Source: Candidatus Bathyarchaeota archaeon (GTDB lineage: Archaea > Thermoproteota > Bathyarchaeia > Bathyarchaeales > Bathycorpusculaceae). From it: DNA of 64,000 nucleotides. Positions 7,197-45,271 of the stretch are shown piece after piece (the first letter of the stretch is position 1; the number at the start of each line of letters is the position of its first letter). The DNA is taken from assembly GCA_963702095.1 (NCBI GenBank), contig OY969706.1, positions 1,152,001 to 1,216,000 on the forward strand. The letters are read 5' to 3'. Under the pieces are notes generated by a model. It worked only from the letters and a program-made list of their open reading frames with translations. It searched no databases and had not been told where the DNA came from. A program made the translations under genes and the position numbers.

Positions 7197-8294
7197 TTAT
7201 TCGTCGCTTTTCTTAATGGTTAACTTGCTCCTCAGTTCTTCTCGTAGAGGAAGCCCAATTTCTAGACCAAGAGCAACGATTAAAGTAATAATTAACTCAG
7301 TATAACTGCCTATGTTTGCAAGTTGAGCAAGAGCTAAACCAACTATTCCTATTGTAGTTAGAACCATCATAACTTTGAAATAAAGTGGTATATCATGGAC
7401 TTTTTCAGATATTGTTCCTAGCCGTGAAATAGTAATATCTCTTGCTTCCTCAAATGCAACAGTTGATGGGTCATCATGAAGTTCGTTTATTGGTATATCG
7501 GTAATTAGCACCGATTTATCTGCAACAAGTATTTTTCCCTTTATATTTTCCATTATTTCATCACGAATATCACTAGAAGAAGGAGATTTTTTAATTACAT
7601 AGAAGTCTTTGCGGTAAGCAATTGTTGCTATTACCGTTTGATTGGCTGAATTGGCTTCACCTATAGCGAGGATTAATGCGCTTTTAGTTTTTGTATCATA
7701 TCTTTTTGTTATCCAGACAGAGCCTTGTTTCCTTGGTTTTTCAAAGTGATGGGTAGCTAAAAACCCTTTACTAATAAGGGCGATTATTTCTGGTGGGGCT
7801 TTGTTTACTAGATACGATTTTTTATCGACCCCGTCAAAACTCAATCGCACGACCTCCCGTACAATCAACAATTGAACTAATCCAATCTCCAGTAATACAA
7901 AACCCCACGTAAAGATGGTCTGAGTTAAGTTCTGCCAAAGAGTTGAAAGTTCTATGCTGTTTGTTGGCAGAATATTTGTTGTTGACCACTTGTAAACAAG
8001 TAGCACAGTTAAAACAGCTATGGTTCCAGTTTGACCCCAGACTGGAGACACAATACGTTTGGGGTTCAATAGAAGCGATACGGTGATGTAGTAGAATATC
8101 GGAATCATCGCATAAGCTACAAGATATGGAATGTTTGAAATGAATACGGTTCCTTGCGAATCTGTAAAAAGATTGAATGGATAAATAAGTAGTGGGAACA
8201 ACGCTAAAACTTGAATTGAAATAATTATCAACGTTGCAACTAAGTAACCAGTGACTGAGTTCGATTTGTTGTATAGTTCCTCTGCTTGGGACAT
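7197..8294 (-). CDS. Hypothetical multi-pass membrane protein (AT-rich, probable transposon cargo)
   Basis: 365-aa ORF, several hydrophobic segments, next to an IS6-like end. Confidence 0.7.
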   Translation of the reverse strand: MSQAEELYNKSNSVTGYLVATLIIISIQVLALFPLLIYPFNLFTDSQGTVFISNIPYLVAYAMIPIFYYITVSLLLNPKRIVSPVWGQTGTIAVLTVLLVYKWSTTNILPTNSIELSTLWQNLTQTIFTWGFVLLEIGLVQLLIVREVVRLSFDGVDKKSYLVNKAPPEIIALISKGFLATHHFEKPRKQGSVWITKRYDTKTKSALILAIGEANSANQTVIATIAYRKDFYVIKKSPSSSDIRDEIMENIKGKILVADKSVLITDIPINELHDDPSTVAFEEARDITISRLGTISEKVHDIPLYFKVMMVLTTIGIVGLALAQLANIGSYTELIITLIVALGLEIGLPLREELRSKLTIKKSDE

Positions 8295-8379
8295 TAAATA
8301 AACTTCTATTGTTTTGGTATTTAGATTTTGCCAAACCCATATGCTTTAAAACCGATTCAAGTAACAGCCAGCTCCGCAA

Positions 8380-8504
8380 TCTCTTTTCAGAACTGTTCAA
8401 TCCAGCCCGACAGAACTCAAAAAGCCAACCCCAGAGACCCAAGAGAAAAGCCACTAGACGGATTTTCACATGAATGCCTGAACTGACGGAGACTTCAGAG
8501 AACC
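8380..8504. mobile_element. Orphan IS6-like element end abutting the next element
   Basis: ~125 bp imperfect inverted copy of 8513-8638; ends in ...cttcagagaacc, like 11930-11941. Confidence 0.7.
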
Positions 8505-8684
8505 CCTTTGAGGGTTTTTTGAACTCTTCGTCAGTTGGGGGGTTCATGTGAAAATCCGTCTAGTGGGTTTTCTGTTGAAGCTCTGGGGCTGGTTTTCTTA
8601 TTTATGCGGGGCAAAGCGGAACAATTCTGAACATAGAGCATTTTCGGCAAAGCTCAAATACTATGACCTAACAACCACAAGGAT

Positions 8685-9827
8685 ATGCCTAAAAAAACTG
8701 GAAACATTTTGCCCTTCCTATTGGGTGGAGGCTTTGTCTTGAGTTCTTTTCTCGGTGGATTCTTCAGTTCAATGGGTGAGAGTGTATGGACTGCCATATC
8801 TCAAGGTCATTACAATTTGGATATATCACAAATTGTTTCTTTAGCCTTTGGATTTCTAGGTGTCTTTCTTCTATGTTATGGTATATACCTAAAACTAAAA
8901 GATTTCACGACAACCGATGGTTCGACTTTTCCACAATCATTTTACAAATTGAGATTTCACTTCAAAAAAGAGGCTAGACTAAATATCGGTACTGTCGGCG
9001 CTATCTGCCTATTAATGGGTACTGTTATGATAGTTATGTTTCTGAGTTTTCCTCCACCCCCCGCAACAACTCCCATGTTGATGTACAATGTGATTCTGTC
9101 AACCGCTATCATTAGTGGTATAGCAATCATTGCTCTGGGCGGGGTTTTCTTTTCAAATGTATTACTGGATATAAAACAAGTGAGAGATAACGAAATAAGA
9201 AATCAAAAAGACACTTATACCAAGCTCGTAAAGGATTTTTGCAACGTCCGAGATAATATGCAAAGAGTTTCTAGCGACAGCTTAAGAGCGAAATTATCTT
9301 GTGAATTAGATGCTAAACTTCTCGCTTTGCTTAAAGGCTATAAATGGGTTAAGATAGAAAACGAAGTAATGTCGATACTTAACGATGTTATTCCAGACAG
9401 AATTACTATTGAAAATCATGTAATGAACATTAGCTACCTGTCAGCGATAGTTCAGTATCAAAGAGTTAACACTATTCAAAAAATTGGTAAAAATTGGGGC
9501 AAAGACTTGGAAAAACTATACGATGATCAAAAATGTAATACTGAAACCTTAAAGGAAGTTGTATATTTGCTCCAAGAAATAAATGGCTATAGCTCAGAGT
9601 ATATGATGCGTCTAATCGAAGATATGACTTCCCACGCTAGCAAATTGAAGTTTTCGCTTGTTTCAAGTAATATCAATTTTACGAAAGTTAAAGCCAGAAG
9701 TGAGGATGATTATTACAAATTGCTTAATTTCATCGTTCTTAAAATGGACTCAGCCCAAAGAAATAATGAAAACGAAGAAATACTTGAACGGTTAAGAATC
9801 TTGTATGCCACCGCTAAAAAAGCATAA
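8685..9827 (+). CDS. Hypothetical membrane protein (4 TM plus soluble C-terminal domain), transposon cargo
   Basis: 380-aa AT-rich ORF inside the element. Confidence 0.7.
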   Translation: MPKKTGNILPFLLGGGFVLSSFLGGFFSSMGESVWTAISQGHYNLDISQIVSLAFGFLGVFLLCYGIYLKLKDFTTTDGSTFPQSFYKLRFHFKKEARLNIGTVGAICLLMGTVMIVMFLSFPPPPATTPMLMYNVILSTAIISGIAIIALGGVFFSNVLLDIKQVRDNEIRNQKDTYTKLVKDFCNVRDNMQRVSSDSLRAKLSCELDAKLLALLKGYKWVKIENEVMSILNDVIPDRITIENHVMNISYLSAIVQYQRVNTIQKIGKNWGKDLEKLYDDQKCNTETLKEVVYLLQEINGYSSEYMMRLIEDMTSHASKLKFSLVSSNINFTKVKARSEDDYYKLLNFIVLKMDSAQRNNENEEILERLRILYATAKKA

Positions 9828-10949
9828 GTTAAGTTTTTTCTTGCTAGCATTTTGTATTAGTGTTATCCATTTGTTATCGCCCTCAACTTTGATACCACAC
9901 GCTTCGGCGGGGGTTTTACCATCCAGCGCCATGTGAGGACGTACAAAATTATAGTATGTCTGGAAGCCCTCAAGGATTGGGGTTCTACGCTTCTTTAATC
10001 CCCTCATTGTCTTTTCTCTATCTCGAATAGTTCCATTTAGGCGTTCCATCTTGTTATTGTTGTGTACTTTACCGTTTAAGGTTATTTTGCGGATGTGTTT
10101 TGTTTCGGGGAAGGCTTGTTCACATGCTACAGCGTAAGAGGGTAATCCGTCAGTGATGAGGACTTTTGGGTCTTTTCCCATGACTCTTTTAGCTCTAAAG
10201 AATAAGGCTCTTGCATCGTGTTTTTCTTTGGTTTCGGCTACTTCTTGAGCTATCCAGAAACGGGTTTCTGTGTCCATCATAGCGAAGAGGTACTTTAGGT
10301 TTCCAGCCATGCGGATGTAAACTTCATCAGCGCAAACCGTGTCAGAAACGTTTGGTCTGATTTTGTCAGTGTAGTTTTTCATTAGGCGAGTGTATTTCTT
10401 TATCCAGTTTAGGATTGTTCGGTAAGAGACTTTTACGCCCATTAATTCGAGGGCTCTCATTGTGTTGCGTAGGCTTTCCCCACCGAAATAAAGCTCTAAG
10501 CTGGTTACTACTGCTTGGGGATTATGCTTCATTTTCTCAAAGCCTATGTTGTATGTGAAGTATTTGTGGCAGTCTCGGCAGAGGTATTTTTGGATGTTGC
10601 CTGATTTGTTTTTGCGTAATCCAGCTTTCATTAGGTTCGGTGAACCACAGTAGATGCAAGCGGTTAGGGTTCCGAGTGGTTCTATTCTTTGGATTGCTAC
10701 TTCGGCGCGTACTCGCTGAGAGAAGATTACGGCGTGGATGTGTTTGCATGTGGTGTGTCGGTAAGTGTTATCTGGACAATCGCAAACCCATTCTTGATCT
10801 ATTTTATTGACTGCGTATTCGCCGTGTCCTGACTGTGATTTTACAAGGTAAAGCATTTCGTCTATTCTGTTGATTTGTCCGCTAGCCGTTGCGATTGCTT
10901 GACCGCGTACTTCTCTGGTTGTTAGCTGTGTGCTCGACATTTCAGTCAC
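9792..10949 (-). CDS. IS6-family DDE transposase with N-terminal SWIM and Zn-ribbon domains
   Basis: CDCPD..CKHIHA (SWIM), CIYC..CRDC, ADEVY, LITDG, NNKMERLNGTIR, YNFVRPH..L.GKTPAE. Confidence 0.92.
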   Translation of the reverse strand: MTEMSSTQLTTREVRGQAIATASGQINRIDEMLYLVKSQSGHGEYAVNKIDQEWVCDCPDNTYRHTTCKHIHAVIFSQRVRAEVAIQRIEPLGTLTACIYCGSPNLMKAGLRKNKSGNIQKYLCRDCHKYFTYNIGFEKMKHNPQAVVTSLELYFGGESLRNTMRALELMGVKVSYRTILNWIKKYTRLMKNYTDKIRPNVSDTVCADEVYIRMAGNLKYLFAMMDTETRFWIAQEVAETKEKHDARALFFRAKRVMGKDPKVLITDGLPSYAVACEQAFPETKHIRKITLNGKVHNNNKMERLNGTIRDREKTMRGLKKRRTPILEGFQTYYNFVRPHMALDGKTPAEACGIKVEGDNKWITLIQNASKKKLNLCFFSGGIQDS

Positions 10950-41100: not shown

Positions 41101-41343
41101 TATAAAAAGTCAAAACCTACATTAAACCATCTTTTTCTGAGTTTATATCTCTATTGAAGTCATATCGCCTAGTGGTTTGGAGTTTTGGCGGCACATCGTA
41201 GGAGTTATGTGGATGCCGGCTTAGGGGAGATACTGTTAAGTTAAGTTACCTGAGGGGAAACTTATTGTTGATTTTAAATCTATCTTGTGTTTTCATAAAG
41301 GCAATATCTCGAATAGACTGTTTTTCTTTCAAGGGATAAAAAA

Positions 41344-42726
41344 ATGGCTGTCCCATATTTCAACACTAACACAATCTACTGTGGCGATAACGAAATAGTT
41401 CTCTCAAAATTTCCAGATGCAAGTGTTGATCTGATTTATGCTGACCCGCCATTCTTTTCTAACCAACAATATGAGATTATTTGGGGAGACGGTTACGAGA
41501 TTAGAGCTTTTGAAGACCGATGGAAAGGTGGAATAAACAATTATGTTGAATGGATGGTTCCAAAACTAGAGCAATGTCATAGAGTTCTGAAGACCTCAGG
41601 CTCTTTGTATTTACATTGTGACTGGCACGCAGGACATTACCTGAAGATACTTTTAGACCGCATTTTTGGGGAAAAACGATTAGTAAATGATATAATATGG
41701 AAACGTACAGCCGCGCATAGCGGCGAAGGAATAATCAAGAAGTATGGAACAATTCACGATAATATTTTGTTCTACACTAAAAGCGAAAAATACACATTTA
41801 ATCCTCAATATATGCCTTACGAACAAAAATACTTAGATAAATTTTACAACCATAAGGATGCAGATGGAAGAGTATGGCTTTCTCGTGATTTAACTGCTGC
41901 TGGGACTAGAAATGGTGAGTCAGGTAAACCTTGGAAGGGCATCGATGTAACAATGAAAGGTGTCCACTGGAAATATAGAGTATCAAAACTTGATGAATTA
42001 GAAAAGGAAGGCCGAATTTTTTTCCCAAAAAAAGCTGGAGGCATGCCAAGATATAAACAATATTTAGACGAAGCAAAAGGCATTTTACTTCAAGATATAT
42101 GGACTGATGTACCCGTTTTATCCTCTCATGCAAAAGAACGTCTAGGATACCCCACGCAAAAACCTGAGAGTCTCCTTGAAAGGATTATTAACACATCCTC
42201 AAATCCGATGGACATAGTTCTCGACCCTTTTTGCGGATGTGGAACAGCTATATCGATGGCACATAAAAAAGGGCGACGATGGGTGGGTATAGATATTTCA
42301 CCTACAGCTTGTGATTTGATGGAAAGACGAATGCGGAAACTTCACATATCACCAAACATGATGGGTATGCCACTAACAGAGGATGACCTGCGCAAGATAG
42401 CGGCTTTTGAGTTTCAGAATTGGGTCGTTAAAAGGCTCTATGGAAGAGTTACCGCAAGAAAAAGCGGTGACATGGGCATCGATGGGACAACATTTGAAGG
42501 AATCCCTATCCAAGTTAAGCAATCAGAGGACATTGGGAGAAACGTAATCGATAATTTTGAGACCGCACTGAGACGAAAAAAGAAAACAAAAGGTATAGTT
42601 GTTGCATTTAGTTTTGGGCGTGGTGCCTATGAAGAAATAGCTAGAGCTAAACTCAACGATAACTTAGATATTAAAGCTCTTTCTATCAAGGACTTGATAA
42701 AAAAGCAAGAGCAACAGCTTATTTGA
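41344..42726 (+). CDS. Beta-class amino DNA methyltransferase fused to an Mrr-like endonuclease domain
   Basis: YADPPF, YPTQKP, DPFCGCGT; C-terminal FEFQNW..GDMGIDG..IQVKQ. Confidence 0.88.
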   Translation: MAVPYFNTNTIYCGDNEIVLSKFPDASVDLIYADPPFFSNQQYEIIWGDGYEIRAFEDRWKGGINNYVEWMVPKLEQCHRVLKTSGSLYLHCDWHAGHYLKILLDRIFGEKRLVNDIIWKRTAAHSGEGIIKKYGTIHDNILFYTKSEKYTFNPQYMPYEQKYLDKFYNHKDADGRVWLSRDLTAAGTRNGESGKPWKGIDVTMKGVHWKYRVSKLDELEKEGRIFFPKKAGGMPRYKQYLDEAKGILLQDIWTDVPVLSSHAKERLGYPTQKPESLLERIINTSSNPMDIVLDPFCGCGTAISMAHKKGRRWVGIDISPTACDLMERRMRKLHISPNMMGMPLTEDDLRKIAAFEFQNWVVKRLYGRVTARKSGDMGIDGTTFEGIPIQVKQSEDIGRNVIDNFETALRRKKKTKGIVVAFSFGRGAYEEIARAKLNDNLDIKALSIKDLIKKQEQQLI

Positions 42727-42871
42727 GCTTAACTCTTCCTTTTACTCTCTTTTCATATTCTTCTTCAGTTATGATGCCTTTTTCAATGAGTAAGTCTACT
42801 AGGGCTGATTGCATGTCGTCTAAGAGATCTATTTCTTCTAATGGTTCTCTTTCAATTTTTGTTTTCTTCAT
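42719..42871 (-). CDS. Small SHOCT-like protein
   Basis: LVDLLIEKGIITEEEYEKR. Confidence 0.6.
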   Translation of the reverse strand: MKKTKIEREPLEEIDLLDDMQSALVDLLIEKGIITEEEYEKRVKGRVKLK

Positions 42872-43025
42872 GTTTCCCACCTTTCGCCAAGTATCCTTGT
42901 TCACTTAACCAATTCATAATAATGGTTCTTAAAGTATCACTGTAGCCCTCGCCCACTTTGCCAACAACTTCCTTATCCAAGATTTCAACCACTCCATCAG
43001 GCAGACTAACGATTATTTTCTTCAT
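42852..43025 (-). CDS. CopG/RHH protein, 57 aa, translationally coupled to the transposase; not in ORF track
   Basis: MKKIIVSLPDGVVEILDKEV..YSDTLRTIIMNWLSEQGY; ATGA overlap with the transposase stop. Confidence 0.7.
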   Translation of the reverse strand: MKKIIVSLPDGVVEILDKEVVGKVGEGYSDTLRTIIMNWLSEQGYLAKGGKHEENKN

Positions 43026-43942
43026 TTACTAACCACCTTCAATCCTTCCTCTTTCTCAACTTTGTTACTCAAAGCATTAACTAAAAGCATGGCTTCTCTT
43101 TTTGTTGCTTCACTAATCAACCCTTTCCAAGTATTAGGCACGTTCATCCGTGCAGCTTGAGCGGGAGTTTTACCGCCTAGACTTTGATGCGGTCTAATAC
43201 AGTTATAATAGACGCTCCAACCTTCAAGCAACAGTTTTGTTGAATCATAGCTTTTTAGCCCTCTCATGCAACGTGTTCTATCTTTGAGTGTTCCATGCAA
43301 CCGCTCAACAATGTTGTTGGTTTCTCTTGCTCTAATCCCAACCCTCTGGACTAACTCAACCCTTGTATCCTTTCGCATGGTATAGAATACTTTGTTAAAA
43401 GCACTCTTGTAAACATGGCTTCCATCAACGAATACTGCTCTTGGGCGAACTTTGCTTTGGTCAACGCCTTTCTTGAAGATACTTACCGTATCTTCAAAAG
43501 TACGGGTATTTGAAAGGTGAGAAGCAACCATGAAACGTGTATCTTCGTCTATCATTTCCCAGAACCAAATACTGCGCCCTTCACAACTTAGCATAGTTTC
43601 GTCTTCATGCCATAGACCTGAAAGTTGAGGAATTTGAGACAGCATATATTCTTTGGCAAGCTCAGAATACTTCTTTATCCAATTCAGAACCGTAACTTGA
43701 GAAACCTTTTCCCCAAAAATCTGCTCAATATTCTTGCGAGTCTTTCTAAGAGACATACCATCGTAGTAGAAGTTTAGGGCAGCAACAATCATGTTTTGTT
43801 CGTTTCTCATTCGTGAGAATTTTCCGTTTGGTACAAAGATGTGACCGCAATCTTTACACTTGTAAGTTTGTTTGTTGTGGCGTATGCCTTTTTTGGTGAC
43901 GTTTTCTGAGTTGCAGTATTTACAGTTCATCGGTTCACACAC
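43022..43942 (-). CDS. IS6-family DDE transposase
   Basis: CKYC..CKDC, WHEDET, FVDG, NNIVERLHGTLK, YNCIRPHQSLGGKTPA. Confidence 0.92.
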   Translation of the reverse strand: MCEPMNCKYCNSENVTKKGIRHNKQTYKCKDCGHIFVPNGKFSRMRNEQNMIVAALNFYYDGMSLRKTRKNIEQIFGEKVSQVTVLNWIKKYSELAKEYMLSQIPQLSGLWHEDETMLSCEGRSIWFWEMIDEDTRFMVASHLSNTRTFEDTVSIFKKGVDQSKVRPRAVFVDGSHVYKSAFNKVFYTMRKDTRVELVQRVGIRARETNNIVERLHGTLKDRTRCMRGLKSYDSTKLLLEGWSVYYNCIRPHQSLGGKTPAQAARMNVPNTWKGLISEATKREAMLLVNALSNKVEKEEGLKVVSK

Positions 43943-44054
43943 TCTTACAGCAATACTATAGTAAGCCTACAGTATTTATAACTTGTGGTACTCTCAAGGG
44001 ACTCTTACAACACTACCACAAAAGTTAAATCATATTTTACCCATAACATAAGCA

Positions 44055-44132
44055 TGGCGACTGGAAGGGGATTTGAACCCCCGATCAACCGCTTAGTGGG
44101 CGATGGCTATGTCCATGCTAAGCAATCCAGTC
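44055..44132 (-). tRNA. Non-canonical tRNA / tRNA-like gene, anticodon ACT
   Basis: Cloverleaf GACTGGA/TCCAGTC-G-CCA, anticodon arm ATCGC-CCACTAA-GCGGT, T arm GGGGG-TTCAAAT-CCCCT. Confidence 0.8.
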
Positions 44133-44207
44133 ACTTATCGTTAGGGAAACACTGCGGGCGCAGGTCGGACGCAATGTTCCCTAACGGTCACTCCAGTCAA
44201 AGAATGA

Positions 44208-44942
44208 CTATGATACTTTTTCTGTTTGGAGTTTAGTCTTTTGTAGCTTTAACCATGCCTTAATCGCTTCAAGCTGTGACTCGACAAACTCTATGGCAAT
44301 TATGTCTTTTTTAACCCATATGTTATATTCATCGGACGAACCATAGGATACAACACCTGACGGTTGGCTTGGTTGCCTGACTTGAAATGATGAGGAAAGG
44401 TTAGCTGGTCTTTCTTCCATATCTTGTTCTGTCCTCCTATCGTCCTCGTAATTACTCTCTGAGGATGTTGACGGAAAACAGAATGCGACTGATTCAGTAT
44501 ATAGCTTGGCTACCTTTTCATACTTTGATTGTGCTATTTGTCTATCTACATGTAGCTTATCTACCAAATAACTGCAGAACTCGCCAGAAAGTGCTTTTGT
44601 TCCATAGTCCTTTCGTATCCTGACCCAAAGTTCAATTTTATTAAAAATAGTTTCTTTCGTAGCTTGAAGTTCTTGGGGTGTTAACGGATTAACAAGTTTT
44701 TCTGCAAGGTCTGTCGTATGTAGCAATCCTCTTCCTTCAGCAAGACCATATCTTTTAAGCGAGAACAAAATCATACCCGTCCACCCTCCACGAGCAGATA
44801 TGTTGAGCTTTTCGGCAAGTAGTTGAACGCTCATAGACTGACCTGAAAAATCATAGATTATTTTAGCCGTCTTGTATGCCTCGGGGACAGATATGTCGGG
44901 GTACTTATAACTGCCTATACTTCCCATTACTAATACCTGCAA
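44208..44942 (-). CDS. Hypothetical protein with winged-helix-like N-terminus, transposon cargo
   Basis: LAEKLNIS..G....SLKRYGL....TTDLA pattern. Confidence 0.65.
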   Translation of the reverse strand: MQVLVMGSIGSYKYPDISVPEAYKTAKIIYDFSGQSMSVQLLAEKLNISARGGWTGMILFSLKRYGLAEGRGLLHTTDLAEKLVNPLTPQELQATKETIFNKIELWVRIRKDYGTKALSGEFCSYLVDKLHVDRQIAQSKYEKVAKLYTESVAFCFPSTSSESNYEDDRRTEQDMEERPANLSSSFQVRQPSQPSGVVSYGSSDEYNIWVKKDIIAIEFVESQLEAIKAWLKLQKTKLQTEKVS

Positions 44943-45271
44943 TAGTATCTATAATAAGTTACTAATAAAGTTACTGTAAGGCGCAATTCACAGTATATTT
45001 TAGCGTATAAAACTACTTGAAAAACTTTCTGTAAATGTAAACCCCACTATAAAGTAGAAAAAATTTCAGAGTTTTTGTCGGGTAACTTAACTTAACAGTA
45101 TCCTTAGGGGATAGCGTTTATTAGTATCGAAATTCATTGTTAAAAATGCCGAACCGCGAGTTAAGGAGACTTTGTGGCGTCAAACGCTTGTTTGATACTG
45201 CAAAGATAATAACGGCTGACCCGTGACCCTCGTGTTCGAGATAGCCGATTATACAAGTTTAGAAAGGATGT

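Follow-up and report, generated by a model that had tools for sequence, protein, structure and literature searches.

Why does a mobile element carry a tRNA gene whose anticodon and body point to different amino acids? The question is raised by a 64,000-nt stretch of the genome of a Candidatus Bathyarchaeota archaeon (assembly GCA_963702095.1, contig OY969706.1, positions 1,152,001–1,216,000 of the forward strand; hereafter the window), in which a transposon of the IS6 family bears a tRNA gene with the anticodon ACU upstream of its transposase gene. We concluded that this extra tRNA gene is genuine and that an active IS6-family transposon of the Bathyarchaeia carries it as conserved cargo, and we are highly confident that the cargo gene is real, under selection and tRNA-shaped. 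As to its function, we favor the reading that it specifies a trans-acting accessory tRNA, probably charged with arginine, that would read the codons AGU and AGC; judging from the sequences, we put the probability of this whole chain at roughly 0.4.

ARAGORN reported one tRNA in the window, which it placed on the minus strand at 44055–44132 and called tRNA-Ser(act). The gene was likewise the single Rfam match in the whole 64 kb: the tRNA model (RF00005) matched 44058–44132 of the minus strand with 45.5 bits (gathering threshold 29, E = 1.7e-06), and the cmscan alignment spanned all model positions 1–71 with one non-standard pair, in the D stem. On the minus strand the sequence reads GACUGGA UU GCUU-AGCAUGGACA-UAGC C AUCGC-CCACUAA-GCGGU UGAUC GGGGG-UUCAAAU-CCCCU UCCAGUC G CCA, with a perfect acceptor stem of 7 bp (GACUGGA/UCCAGUC), the anticodon loop CCACUAA (C32 C33 A34 C35 U36 A37 A38) and the T-loop UUCAAAU. 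The original prediction, made by reading the sequence alone, had described a complete cloverleaf with the anticodon ACU, C33, a short variable loop and an encoded CCA; ARAGORN, Rfam and our own reading all agree with that description. The gene has features of two amino acids. It shares with tRNA-Ser a G73 and an anticodon for a serine codon, but its variable loop of 5 nt confirms that the Ser-type long arm is absent although G73 is present. It shares with tRNA-Arg C35, U36 and A20, and its anticodon does not fit an arginine codon, because R34-C35-U36 pairs with AGY. Position 33 is C instead of the usual U. The transposase begins downstream on the same strand, with its ATG at 43942 and a gap of 112 nt between the two genes.

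The gene is an addition to an ordinary set of tRNAs. The window belongs to a single contig of 2.94 Mb (G+C 46.8%), in which Infernal found 45 tRNA matches and ARAGORN made 50 calls. The prediction had counted the encoded CCA among the oddities of the gene, and this point did not hold up: 36 of the 50 ARAGORN calls end in CCA. Four long-armed Ser tRNAs, all of at least 87 nt, are present in the host, those for UGA, GCU and CGA called by ARAGORN and that for GGA read from the printed sequence. Because the host Ser set is thus complete, the ACU gene, which is single-copy in the genome, is extra. It is also the only A34 tRNA with Infernal support in the host; two further A34 calls by ARAGORN were rejected as intron artefacts, since they are missing from the Infernal list. 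A search of sequencing runs listed three DNA runs, with 5–9% of the words sought, and no RNA run, which has no bearing on expression. The GGA gene (G000:C1:382549-382665) bears an intron and was called Asn(GTT) by ARAGORN, but its sequence, in which a long arm and G73 are present, is that of tRNA-Ser(GGA).

We built a search pattern from seven relatives of the gene, in which parts of the D-arm and the anticodon stem were fixed and positions 33–36 were left free; the pattern imposes conservation at positions 32, 37 and 38, and members with other stems (e.g. that of genome G055) are under-sampled. In 185,579 species genomes the pattern matched 10 loci, nine labeled Bathyarchaeia or Bathyarchaeota and one labeled Woesearchaeota, and elsewhere it matched one IMG/VR contig and 79 metagenome contigs. 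Including the window there were 91 matches, 89 of them family tRNAs; we set aside L071, a true tRNA-Arg(UCU) from a Woesearchaeota genome, and L133, which is not a tRNA. Across the 89, positions 33–36 read UACU in 62, CACU in 13, CGCU in 8 and UGCU in 6, so the anticodon is ACU in 75 and GCU in 14. Positions 35–36 are CU in all 89, and position 34 is always a purine (A in 75, G in 14) and never U or C. At position 33, 68 members have U and 21 have C, and the C33 of the window copy is therefore the minority state. No member has a long variable arm, the variable loop being 4–6 nt in all 89. The D-loop GGA (A20) is invariant, whereas position 73, G in the window, is A in many relatives. Scores of the relatives with the Rfam tRNA model ranged from 41 to 55 bits. 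Both C33 and U33, and both A34 and G34, occur inside several acceptor-stem lineages; therefore, positions 33 and 34 have toggled repeatedly, and by transitions only. Relatives in the same genus have either ACU or GCU anticodons. Whether the anticodon varies had been asked with the original prediction; across the family it does so only at position 34 (A or G), with 35–36 fixed. One copy found through its transposase, in genome G055, lacks the CCA and differs in the stems of the acceptor, D and anticodon arms; the loop CUACUAA is nevertheless retained, as is the leader hairpin that precedes the gene in the window.

Several single copies stand apart. The tRNA of L073, an IMG/VR contig filed as viral, is identical to that of L070, a locus in a metagenome-assembled genome of the Bathyarchaeia. 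At L030 (genome G040, a Bathyarchaeum tardum record) the tRNA copy is decayed, with mismatched stems and no ARAGORN call, and a right transposon end lies ~115 nt downstream of it with no transposase; neighbors there include a DUF3800 gene with a DUF3800-VI RNA motif and a thiamine pyrophosphate riboswitch (features at 7531–7642, 8124–8181, 8197–9006 and 9227–9302). A different odd tRNA occurs in G063:C16 (L164:7259-7334), ~155 nt upstream of a homologous transposase and on the opposite strand. It scores 49.6 bits with Rfam and is called Ala-UGC by ARAGORN, Infernal places a 2-nt insertion in its anticodon loop (a 9-nt loop), and it has no G3:U70 pair. Related elements may thus carry other non-canonical tRNAs.

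To judge whether the cloverleaf is maintained, we aligned 69 of the 70 distinct 76-nt bodies; L146, in which the 5' acceptor strand is replaced, was left out, and L093, cut by a contig end, had been removed earlier by the length filter. Standard pairs filled 94.3% of cells in the 69 sequences (shuffled mean 84.0%), and changes on both sides of a pair were seen at 10 of 20 pairs, in 98 cells (shuffled mean 18). None of 500 shuffles reached any of the five covariation measures, and slid registers were only 37–54% paired. The covarying pairs comprised six of seven in the acceptor stem and four of five in the T stem; in the D and anticodon stems, which the search pattern partly fixes, the covariation evidence is weak. 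We concluded that the cloverleaf is full and under selection.

The carrier is an intact IS6-family transposon of 3,874 bp (41229–45102; Table 1). Its 24-nt end motif was first recognized in metagenome relatives and then located in the window. No copy was expected by chance (100 shuffles of the window), and the 2.94-Mb host genome holds exactly two, which bound the element. Matching ends bound more than 20 related elements, each with a 9-bp target duplication, and the duplications are unrelated 9-mers with no common motif. Because ends with unrelated 9-bp duplications bound so many copies, the family is actively mobile, and it has no visible target preference. The same duplications rule out the reading of the tRNA gene as an integration site, in accord with the original prediction, and the inverted ends, the 9-bp duplication and the 112-nt gap bear out its placement of the gene within the element, co-oriented with and upstream of the transposase. 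RNA-guided targeting by the tRNA found no support either, because the duplications show no likeness to it. The transposase passes the models of the IS6 family (IS26/IS257 type): Pfam DDE_Tnp_IS240 (PF13610) gave 72.5 bits against a cut-off of 27, NCBIfam NF033587 (IS6) gave 129.9 bits against 125, and the zinc domain NF050000 was matched as well. Short terminal inverted repeats are a further likeness, and some family copies have ends that begin GGTTCTGTT, as classical IS6 ends do. In contrast to the ~0.8 kb of that family, the related elements here measure 3.6–8 kb, hold several cargo genes and have a tRNA gene as a regular passenger. The target duplication usually quoted for IS6 is 8 bp, as opposed to 9 bp here.

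Family members occur in three gene contexts. In class I, to which the window belongs, an open reading frame (ORF) that we call ORF-C is followed by the leader hairpin, the tRNA, the transposase and two minigenes, sORF1 and sORF2, all in one direction; class I elements have homologues of ORF-C ahead of the tRNA. In class II, the commonest, the transposase, sORF1 and sORF2 point one way, and ORF-A, ORF-B and the tRNA follow in the other direction. In class III a reversed ORF-A-like gene precedes the tRNA, transposase and minigenes; the tRNAs of this class are for the most part GCU forms, and CCA is not encoded in them. The two minigenes accompany the transposase in related loci. Linkage was counted at the 88 family loci besides the window, within the DNA fetched around each: a transposase at ≥50% identity was present in 40, a transposase or minigene in 47, and at least one of six element genes in 64. 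The GGAUGGA/G34 lineage, with long flanks and none of these genes, lies beside an HNH gene. The linkage was also seen when the tRNA was not used in the search. We sought the end motif in 120 genomes of the genus and found it in 30. Five elements had a transposase and both ends on a single contig, and all of these carry an ACU tRNA (G000, G021, G128, G092 and G055); none of the five short, transposase-less derivatives with the same ends (0.3–2.1 kb) carries a tRNA. These derivatives, L155 and L156 (G020), L153 (G112), L154 (G047) and L157/L059 (G063:C13), are non-autonomous and resemble miniature inverted-repeat transposable elements.

Comparison with the host's tRNAs suggests which amino acid the body would accept. 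The window copy aligned best to host tRNA-Arg(UCU), with 58 of 78 positions. When the acceptor stem was removed, the family consensus agreed best with Arg(UCU) and Arg(CCU), both with 48 of 60 positions, followed by Arg(UCG) at 46, Ala(CGC) and Arg(GCG) at 45 each, and Arg(CCG) at 43; five of these top six host tRNAs are Arg isoacceptors. Outside the family, the sole tRNA that fit the search pattern in the 185,579 species genomes was the tRNA-Arg(UCU) of Woesearchaeota. The family is like canonical archaeal tRNA-Arg(UCU/CCU) in its D-arm, anticodon stem, C32, C35, U36, A37, A38, short variable loop, T-arm and G73. It differs in its purine 34 (89/89), by which it would read AGY rather than AGR, in its acceptor stems, which are unrelated to those of the host tRNA-Arg genes, and in the C33 of 21 members. 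Work in E. coli, yeast and Thermus identified A20, C35, U36 (or G36) and R73/G73 as marks for arginyl-tRNA synthetase (ArgRS); A20, C35, U36 and R73 are found throughout the family. Seryl-tRNA synthetase (SerRS) needs a long variable arm. Because the Arg-type identity marks are present and the arm that SerRS requires is absent, the tRNA is most likely charged with arginine. As judged by sequence, the body is of Arg type and nearest to host tRNA-Arg(UCU/CCU), by a margin that is modest but consistent.

Codon-level alignments of the element genes led us to reject a private recoding, in which the element's own genes would read AGY as arginine, because UCN codons occupy the same conserved serine columns as AGY. 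Within the transposase, columns with AGY held 242 UCN codons and 116 Arg codons, and in sORF1 they held 59 and none; among transposase columns at ≥80%, seven combined AGY with UCN and zero combined AGY with Arg codons. One ORF-B column mixes eight AGY with 12 Arg codons. Nor is there any avoidance of AGY by the element, since the AGY share of Ser codons was 38–58% in element genes versus 40.5% in host ORFs. Per 1000 codons, AGU occurred 15.9 times in the transposase, 22.0 in sORF1 and 8.3 in sORF2, versus 7.2 in host ORFs, and the range across the transposase, sORF1, ORF-A, ORF-B and ORF-C was 10.7–22.0. The AGU enrichment is probably due to the AT-rich composition of the element.

We next considered whether the tRNA is a signal in an mRNA or a product in its own right. 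In the window the spacer has, in order from the tRNA, a T-run, the palindrome TGGTA...TACCACAA, a TATA-like box, a second palindrome (TACTGTAGG..TACTATAGTA) and the transposase ATG, and most of 14 related class I and III spacers have the same layout, with the T-run 30–45 nt past the tRNA; one class I copy departs from it. The two palindromes flank the TATA-like box, and both are kept in the two classes. From this arrangement we infer that the T-run would be a terminator and the TATA-like box a regulated promoter of the transposase's own; the palindromes look like operators, perhaps for products of the minigenes. The tRNA of class II elements comes last in its row of genes, faces away from the transposase and is separated from it by ~2 kb. 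On the other side of the tRNA, the region 44050–44215 folds at −69.3 kcal/mol (z = −5.5). Across 12 class I copies the leader hairpin has 17 pairs, seven with compensatory changes, a conserved loop motif CCUGCGCC, and G-U pairs on the tRNA strand, which suggests that the leader is transcribed in the direction of the tRNA. A trans-acting RNA cut from the ORF-C (or ORF-A/B) transcript is favored over a processing device for transposase mRNA because of the separate signals in the spacer, the class II position and the direction of the leader hairpin.

The commonest sister elements place a second gene of interest before the tRNA. This gene, ORF-B, encodes ~450 aa (L060:7474-8826 in G092, plus 23 class II homologues). 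It occurs at 35 of the 88 family loci; among the class II copies listed, its end lies ~12–60 nt short of the tRNA. ORF-B had no match in Pfam, including the tRNA-guanine transglycosylase (TGT) family, and no match to the Dpd models of PADLOC. Its invariant residues include C382, C384, C387 and H408 (CxCxxC...H). A profile search of PDB sequences found the archaeosine TGT 1iq8 (E = 9.7e-05). The AlphaFold model had a predicted local distance difference test score (pLDDT) of 89 and a predicted template-modeling (TM) score of 0.90, and the first 50 Foldseek matches listed were all TGTs, the best again being 1iq8 (E = 1.4e-08, TM 0.57). On the strength of this model, ORF-B is confidently assigned a TGT fold. 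Its fold and CxCxxC...H zinc motif are those of the superfamily (ArcTGT, bacterial TGT, DpdA), but unlike those enzymes it is encoded in a transposon directly upstream of an odd tRNA and lacks a Pfam TGT or PADLOC Dpd match. Position 34 of the tRNA is A in 33 of the 35 ORF-B loci, and thus the classical G34 substrate is missing. No ORF-B homologue was found in the element or genome of the window. ORF-A, which precedes ORF-B, gave weak helix-turn-helix (HTH) matches in 8 of 27 members and forms the winged-HTH-like gene adjoining the tRNA.

Taken stepwise, the favored function would run as follows. The tRNA would be transcribed with ORF-C and the leader hairpin, and RNase P and RNase Z would cut it out of the transcript. 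ArgRS would charge it with arginine, as its Arg-type body suggests, and the charged tRNA would pair with the serine codon AGU, or with AGC in the GCU forms, on the ribosome. There it would compete with the host tRNA-Ser(GCU) and cause some Ser-to-Arg substitution. It would be a trans-acting product of the element, and neither a cis signal nor an integration site. Among the roles that the original prediction had offered, a mis-decoding tRNA emerged as the best supported, through the selected cloverleaf, the CU at 35–36 in 89 of 89, the purine at 34 and the Arg-like core, whereas the decoding step itself is predicted from the sequence. We consider it possible, if somewhat doubtful, that a code-bending tRNA of this kind is a regular passenger of DDE transposons in the Bathyarchaeia: it would be charged with arginine, read AGU/AGC, spread with the element and be controlled by the adjacent winged-helix-like protein and the leader hairpin, and the commonest sister elements would co-transcribe with it a base-exchange enzyme of TGT fold that may act on the tRNA.

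Several observations weigh against an arginine-charged decoding tRNA. U33 is nearly universal and C33 is expected to weaken decoding, and C33 is found in the window copy and 21 of 89 members. The Arg margin is modest, at 48 versus 45 of 60 for the consensus and 45 versus 43 for the window copy, and the identity rules for ArgRS do not come from Bathyarchaeia. Pair 27–43 is non-standard in 50 of the 69 sequences. A strongly mis-decoding tRNA would damage the AGY-serine genes of its own carrier. None of the six element genes was seen in 24 of the 88 loci, where many contigs are short and some flanks are long. Neither a tRNA within ~5 kb nor recognizable ends were seen for four transposase copies (two in G110 and single ones in G098 and G102); a fifth copy, in G063, is adjoined by a different odd tRNA. 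Mainly because the element genes use AGY as serine, two explanations without mis-decoding, one of them without decoding at all, must be kept alive.

The explanation without decoding is that the RNA is a mimic, a decoy or competitive inhibitor for some factor that recognizes tRNA-Arg(UCU/CCU) loops, such as the anticodon nuclease of a host defense or toxin system, which the changes at 33 and 34 would render uncleavable or inert. Apart from position 34, the RNA follows tRNA-Arg(NCU) in body and loop, the variable positions of the loop are 33 and 34 alone, and known anticodon nucleases cut bonds flanked by these positions. C33 and the AGU-rich genes of the element are also easier to reconcile with an RNA that has no decoding task, and the element carries cargo of defense type, a DNA methyltransferase (MTase) fused to an Mrr domain. 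Yet a mimic leaves unexplained why position 34 toggles between purines and is never U or C, features of ribosome use are kept (the T-loop, G18G19, A37A38 and CCA), and the element yielded no anticodon nuclease or partner, the genome not having been searched for one; we rank this explanation next after the favored one, as improbable but worth retaining. The other is a helper tRNA that accepts serine and would read AGU, in which the AT-rich element genes are enriched, by Watson-Crick pairing, much as phage tRNAs match phage codons. The AGU level above that of the host in the transposase, sORF1, ORF-A, ORF-B and ORF-C would suit such a helper, as would the reading of AGY as serine in element genes and the G73 of the window copy. 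A serine acceptor is unlikely, though, given that none of the 89 has the long variable arm found in all four host Ser tRNAs, that the family mixes A73 with G73, and that its core is nearest to Arg tRNAs.

Translation could also be beside the point if the tRNA were a dedicated substrate of the TGT-fold ORF-B, or a structural cofactor or regulator of transposition. The presence of ORF-B in 35 of 88 loci, close upstream of the tRNA in listed class II copies, and the winged-HTH-like gene adjoining the tRNA are in keeping with this proposal. On the other side, the element and genome of the window keep the tRNA without an ORF-B homologue, 33 of 35 ORF-B loci have A34, and TGT relatives from mobile elements reportedly modify DNA (DpdA); for a role in transposition, the unrelated 9-mer duplications leave no RNA-guided targeting visible. 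We rate a substrate or cofactor role as low in probability as the serine helper. Still less probable is a cis-acting signal for processing or stability, in which cleavage by RNase P and RNase Z at the tRNA would shape the ORF-C or transposase transcripts. The tRNA does lie close behind an ORF in classes I and II (~12–190 nt), and we see no room for a promoter between hairpin and tRNA in class I. However, its position relative to the transposase varies, from co-oriented upstream in classes I and III to ~2 kb away and divergent in class II, and the T-run and separate TATA-like box intervene between the two genes; moreover, cleavage would need neither an invariant anticodon nor a purine at 34. 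These points disfavor the suggestion in the original prediction that the tRNA is an RNase P/Z signal for transposase mRNA, all the more as the arrangement that is commonest has the tRNA pointing away. Finally, a former tRNA-Arg(UCU) picked up by a transposon and now drifting as a decaying pseudogene would account for the C-A mismatch at 27–43 in 50 of 69 sequences, the C33 in 21 of 89 and the clearly degraded copies that exist, such as the one in G040. But the compensatory changes at 10 of 20 pairs with 94.3% of cells paired in 69 sequences, the retention of the anticodon where stems have been replaced, and the absence of any U34 or C34 revertant among the 89 make decay hardly credible.

An arginine-charged accessory tRNA would have partial precedents. 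Phages encode tRNAs, among them variants whose anticodon loop lets them evade the anticodon nucleases of the host, and here too a mobile element brings its own tRNA with an altered anticodon loop. Phage tRNAs, unlike the present one, have a body and an anticodon that agree and work in phage translation, whereas here the carrier is a transposon and body and anticodon disagree. A closer parallel is tRNA-ProX with ProRSx in Streptomyces and Kitasatospora, where mistranslation by dual-identity tRNAs was shown by experiment (PMC10404621). There, and going by sequence features here too, a natural, well-formed tRNA combines the anticodon and body of different amino acids and is kept in several genomes, and the anticodons in that case include A34 forms (AUU, AGU). 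The tRNA-ProX genes are bacterial, chromosomal and placed beside a dedicated ProRS isoform (PMC10404621), in contrast to an archaeal tRNA in a DDE transposon that has no adjoining synthetase gene and is known from sequence alone. The Pfam and NCBIfam scans found no aminoacyl-tRNA synthetase domain among its element neighbors (ORF-C, transposase, minigenes and MTase-Mrr). The literature that we searched, with subscription journals and supplements out of reach, held no description of a transposon-borne tRNA of this kind; passages of PMC6563490 treat tRNA genes as integration targets and not as cargo of insertion sequences.

Natural tRNAs with discordant anticodon and identity are known from a few bacterial chromosomes, in regulated mistranslation; here, such a tRNA is a regular, selected transposon passenger across an abundant, uncultured class of archaea. 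By its sequence the odd tRNA looks kept on purpose, as it travels with related transposons in many sediment archaea. If it is charged and used, a horizontally moving element can alter the meaning of a sense codon, and transposons would have a new type of cargo with proteome-wide effects (stress tolerance, addiction, interference with viruses). If it is indeed a code-bending tRNA, archaea would have their first mobile device for mistranslation. If it does not decode, a conserved tRNA mimic would also be new. For testing, the family provides natural variants (69 distinct sequences), gene contexts of two or three kinds and, linked to the tRNA, an enzyme of TGT fold.

Table 1. Features of the tRNA-bearing transposon, with positions counted within the window.
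Feature	Position	Strand	Description
Left target-site duplication copy	41220–41228		9 bp, CTTAGGGGA; identical 9-mer beyond right end
Left terminal inverted repeat	41229–41252	+	24 nt; begins GATACTGTTAAGTTAAGTTACC
MTase-Mrr cargo	41344–42726	+	460 aa; DNA methyltransferase fused to Mrr-type endonuclease domain; Pfam N6_N4_Mtase 164.6 bits, Mrr_cat 26 bits
sORF2 minigene	42719–42904	-	61 aa; from ORF list; overlaps sORF1; weak Pfam SHOCT-like match, below cut-off
sORF1 minigene	42852–43025	-	57 aa; start overlaps transposase stop; no family match
IS6-family DDE transposase	43022–43942	-	306 aa; N-terminal zinc-binding domain; Pfam and NCBIfam
tRNA-transposase spacer	43943–44054	-	T-run, TGGTA...TACCACAA palindrome, TATA-like box, second palindrome, ATG
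tRNA gene	44055–44132	-	Anticodon ACU, C33, 5-nt variable loop, G73, encoded CCA; ARAGORN and Rfam
5' leader hairpin	44139–44186	-	Stem of ~17 bp, loop with CCUGCGCC; ends 6 nt before tRNA
ORF-C	44208–44942	-	244 aa; no family match; ends 21 nt before hairpin
Right terminal inverted repeat	45079–45102	-	24 nt
Right target-site duplication copy	45103–45111		9 bp, CTTAGGGGA

The remaining genes of the element were characterized as far as database matches allowed. The MTase-Mrr fusion also matches type II MTase models of PADLOC. ORF-C had no match in Pfam, PHROGs, NCBIfam or PADLOC, a profile search of the PDB gave nothing meaningful, and the Atlas held only unnamed clusters. Its AlphaFold model is poor (pLDDT 55), and going by the secondary structure of that model the N-terminal part may be winged-helix-like. 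ORF-A and ORF-C were compared as candidates for one family, and this was rejected (hhalign probability 0.2%). By our own reading of its sequence, sORF1 may be ribbon-helix-helix-like in character.

A 15-nt segment within sORF1 (42943–42957) is complementary at 14 of 15 positions to the D-stem/anticodon region of the tRNA. Rfam found no tRNA there, so a second, inverted tRNA copy was discarded. An antisense anti-tRNA was discarded as well: when 14-mers complementary to an element's own tRNA (at most one mismatch) were sought in seven complete elements, this segment of the window was the only one found, and the complementarity is probably due to chance because it is absent in the 16 other sORF1 copies compared. 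The host has two more IS6-like transposases, one in the window at 9825–10661 (G000:C1:1161825-1162661), which is distant (38% identity), and a third in the genome at G000:C1:1962832-1963671.

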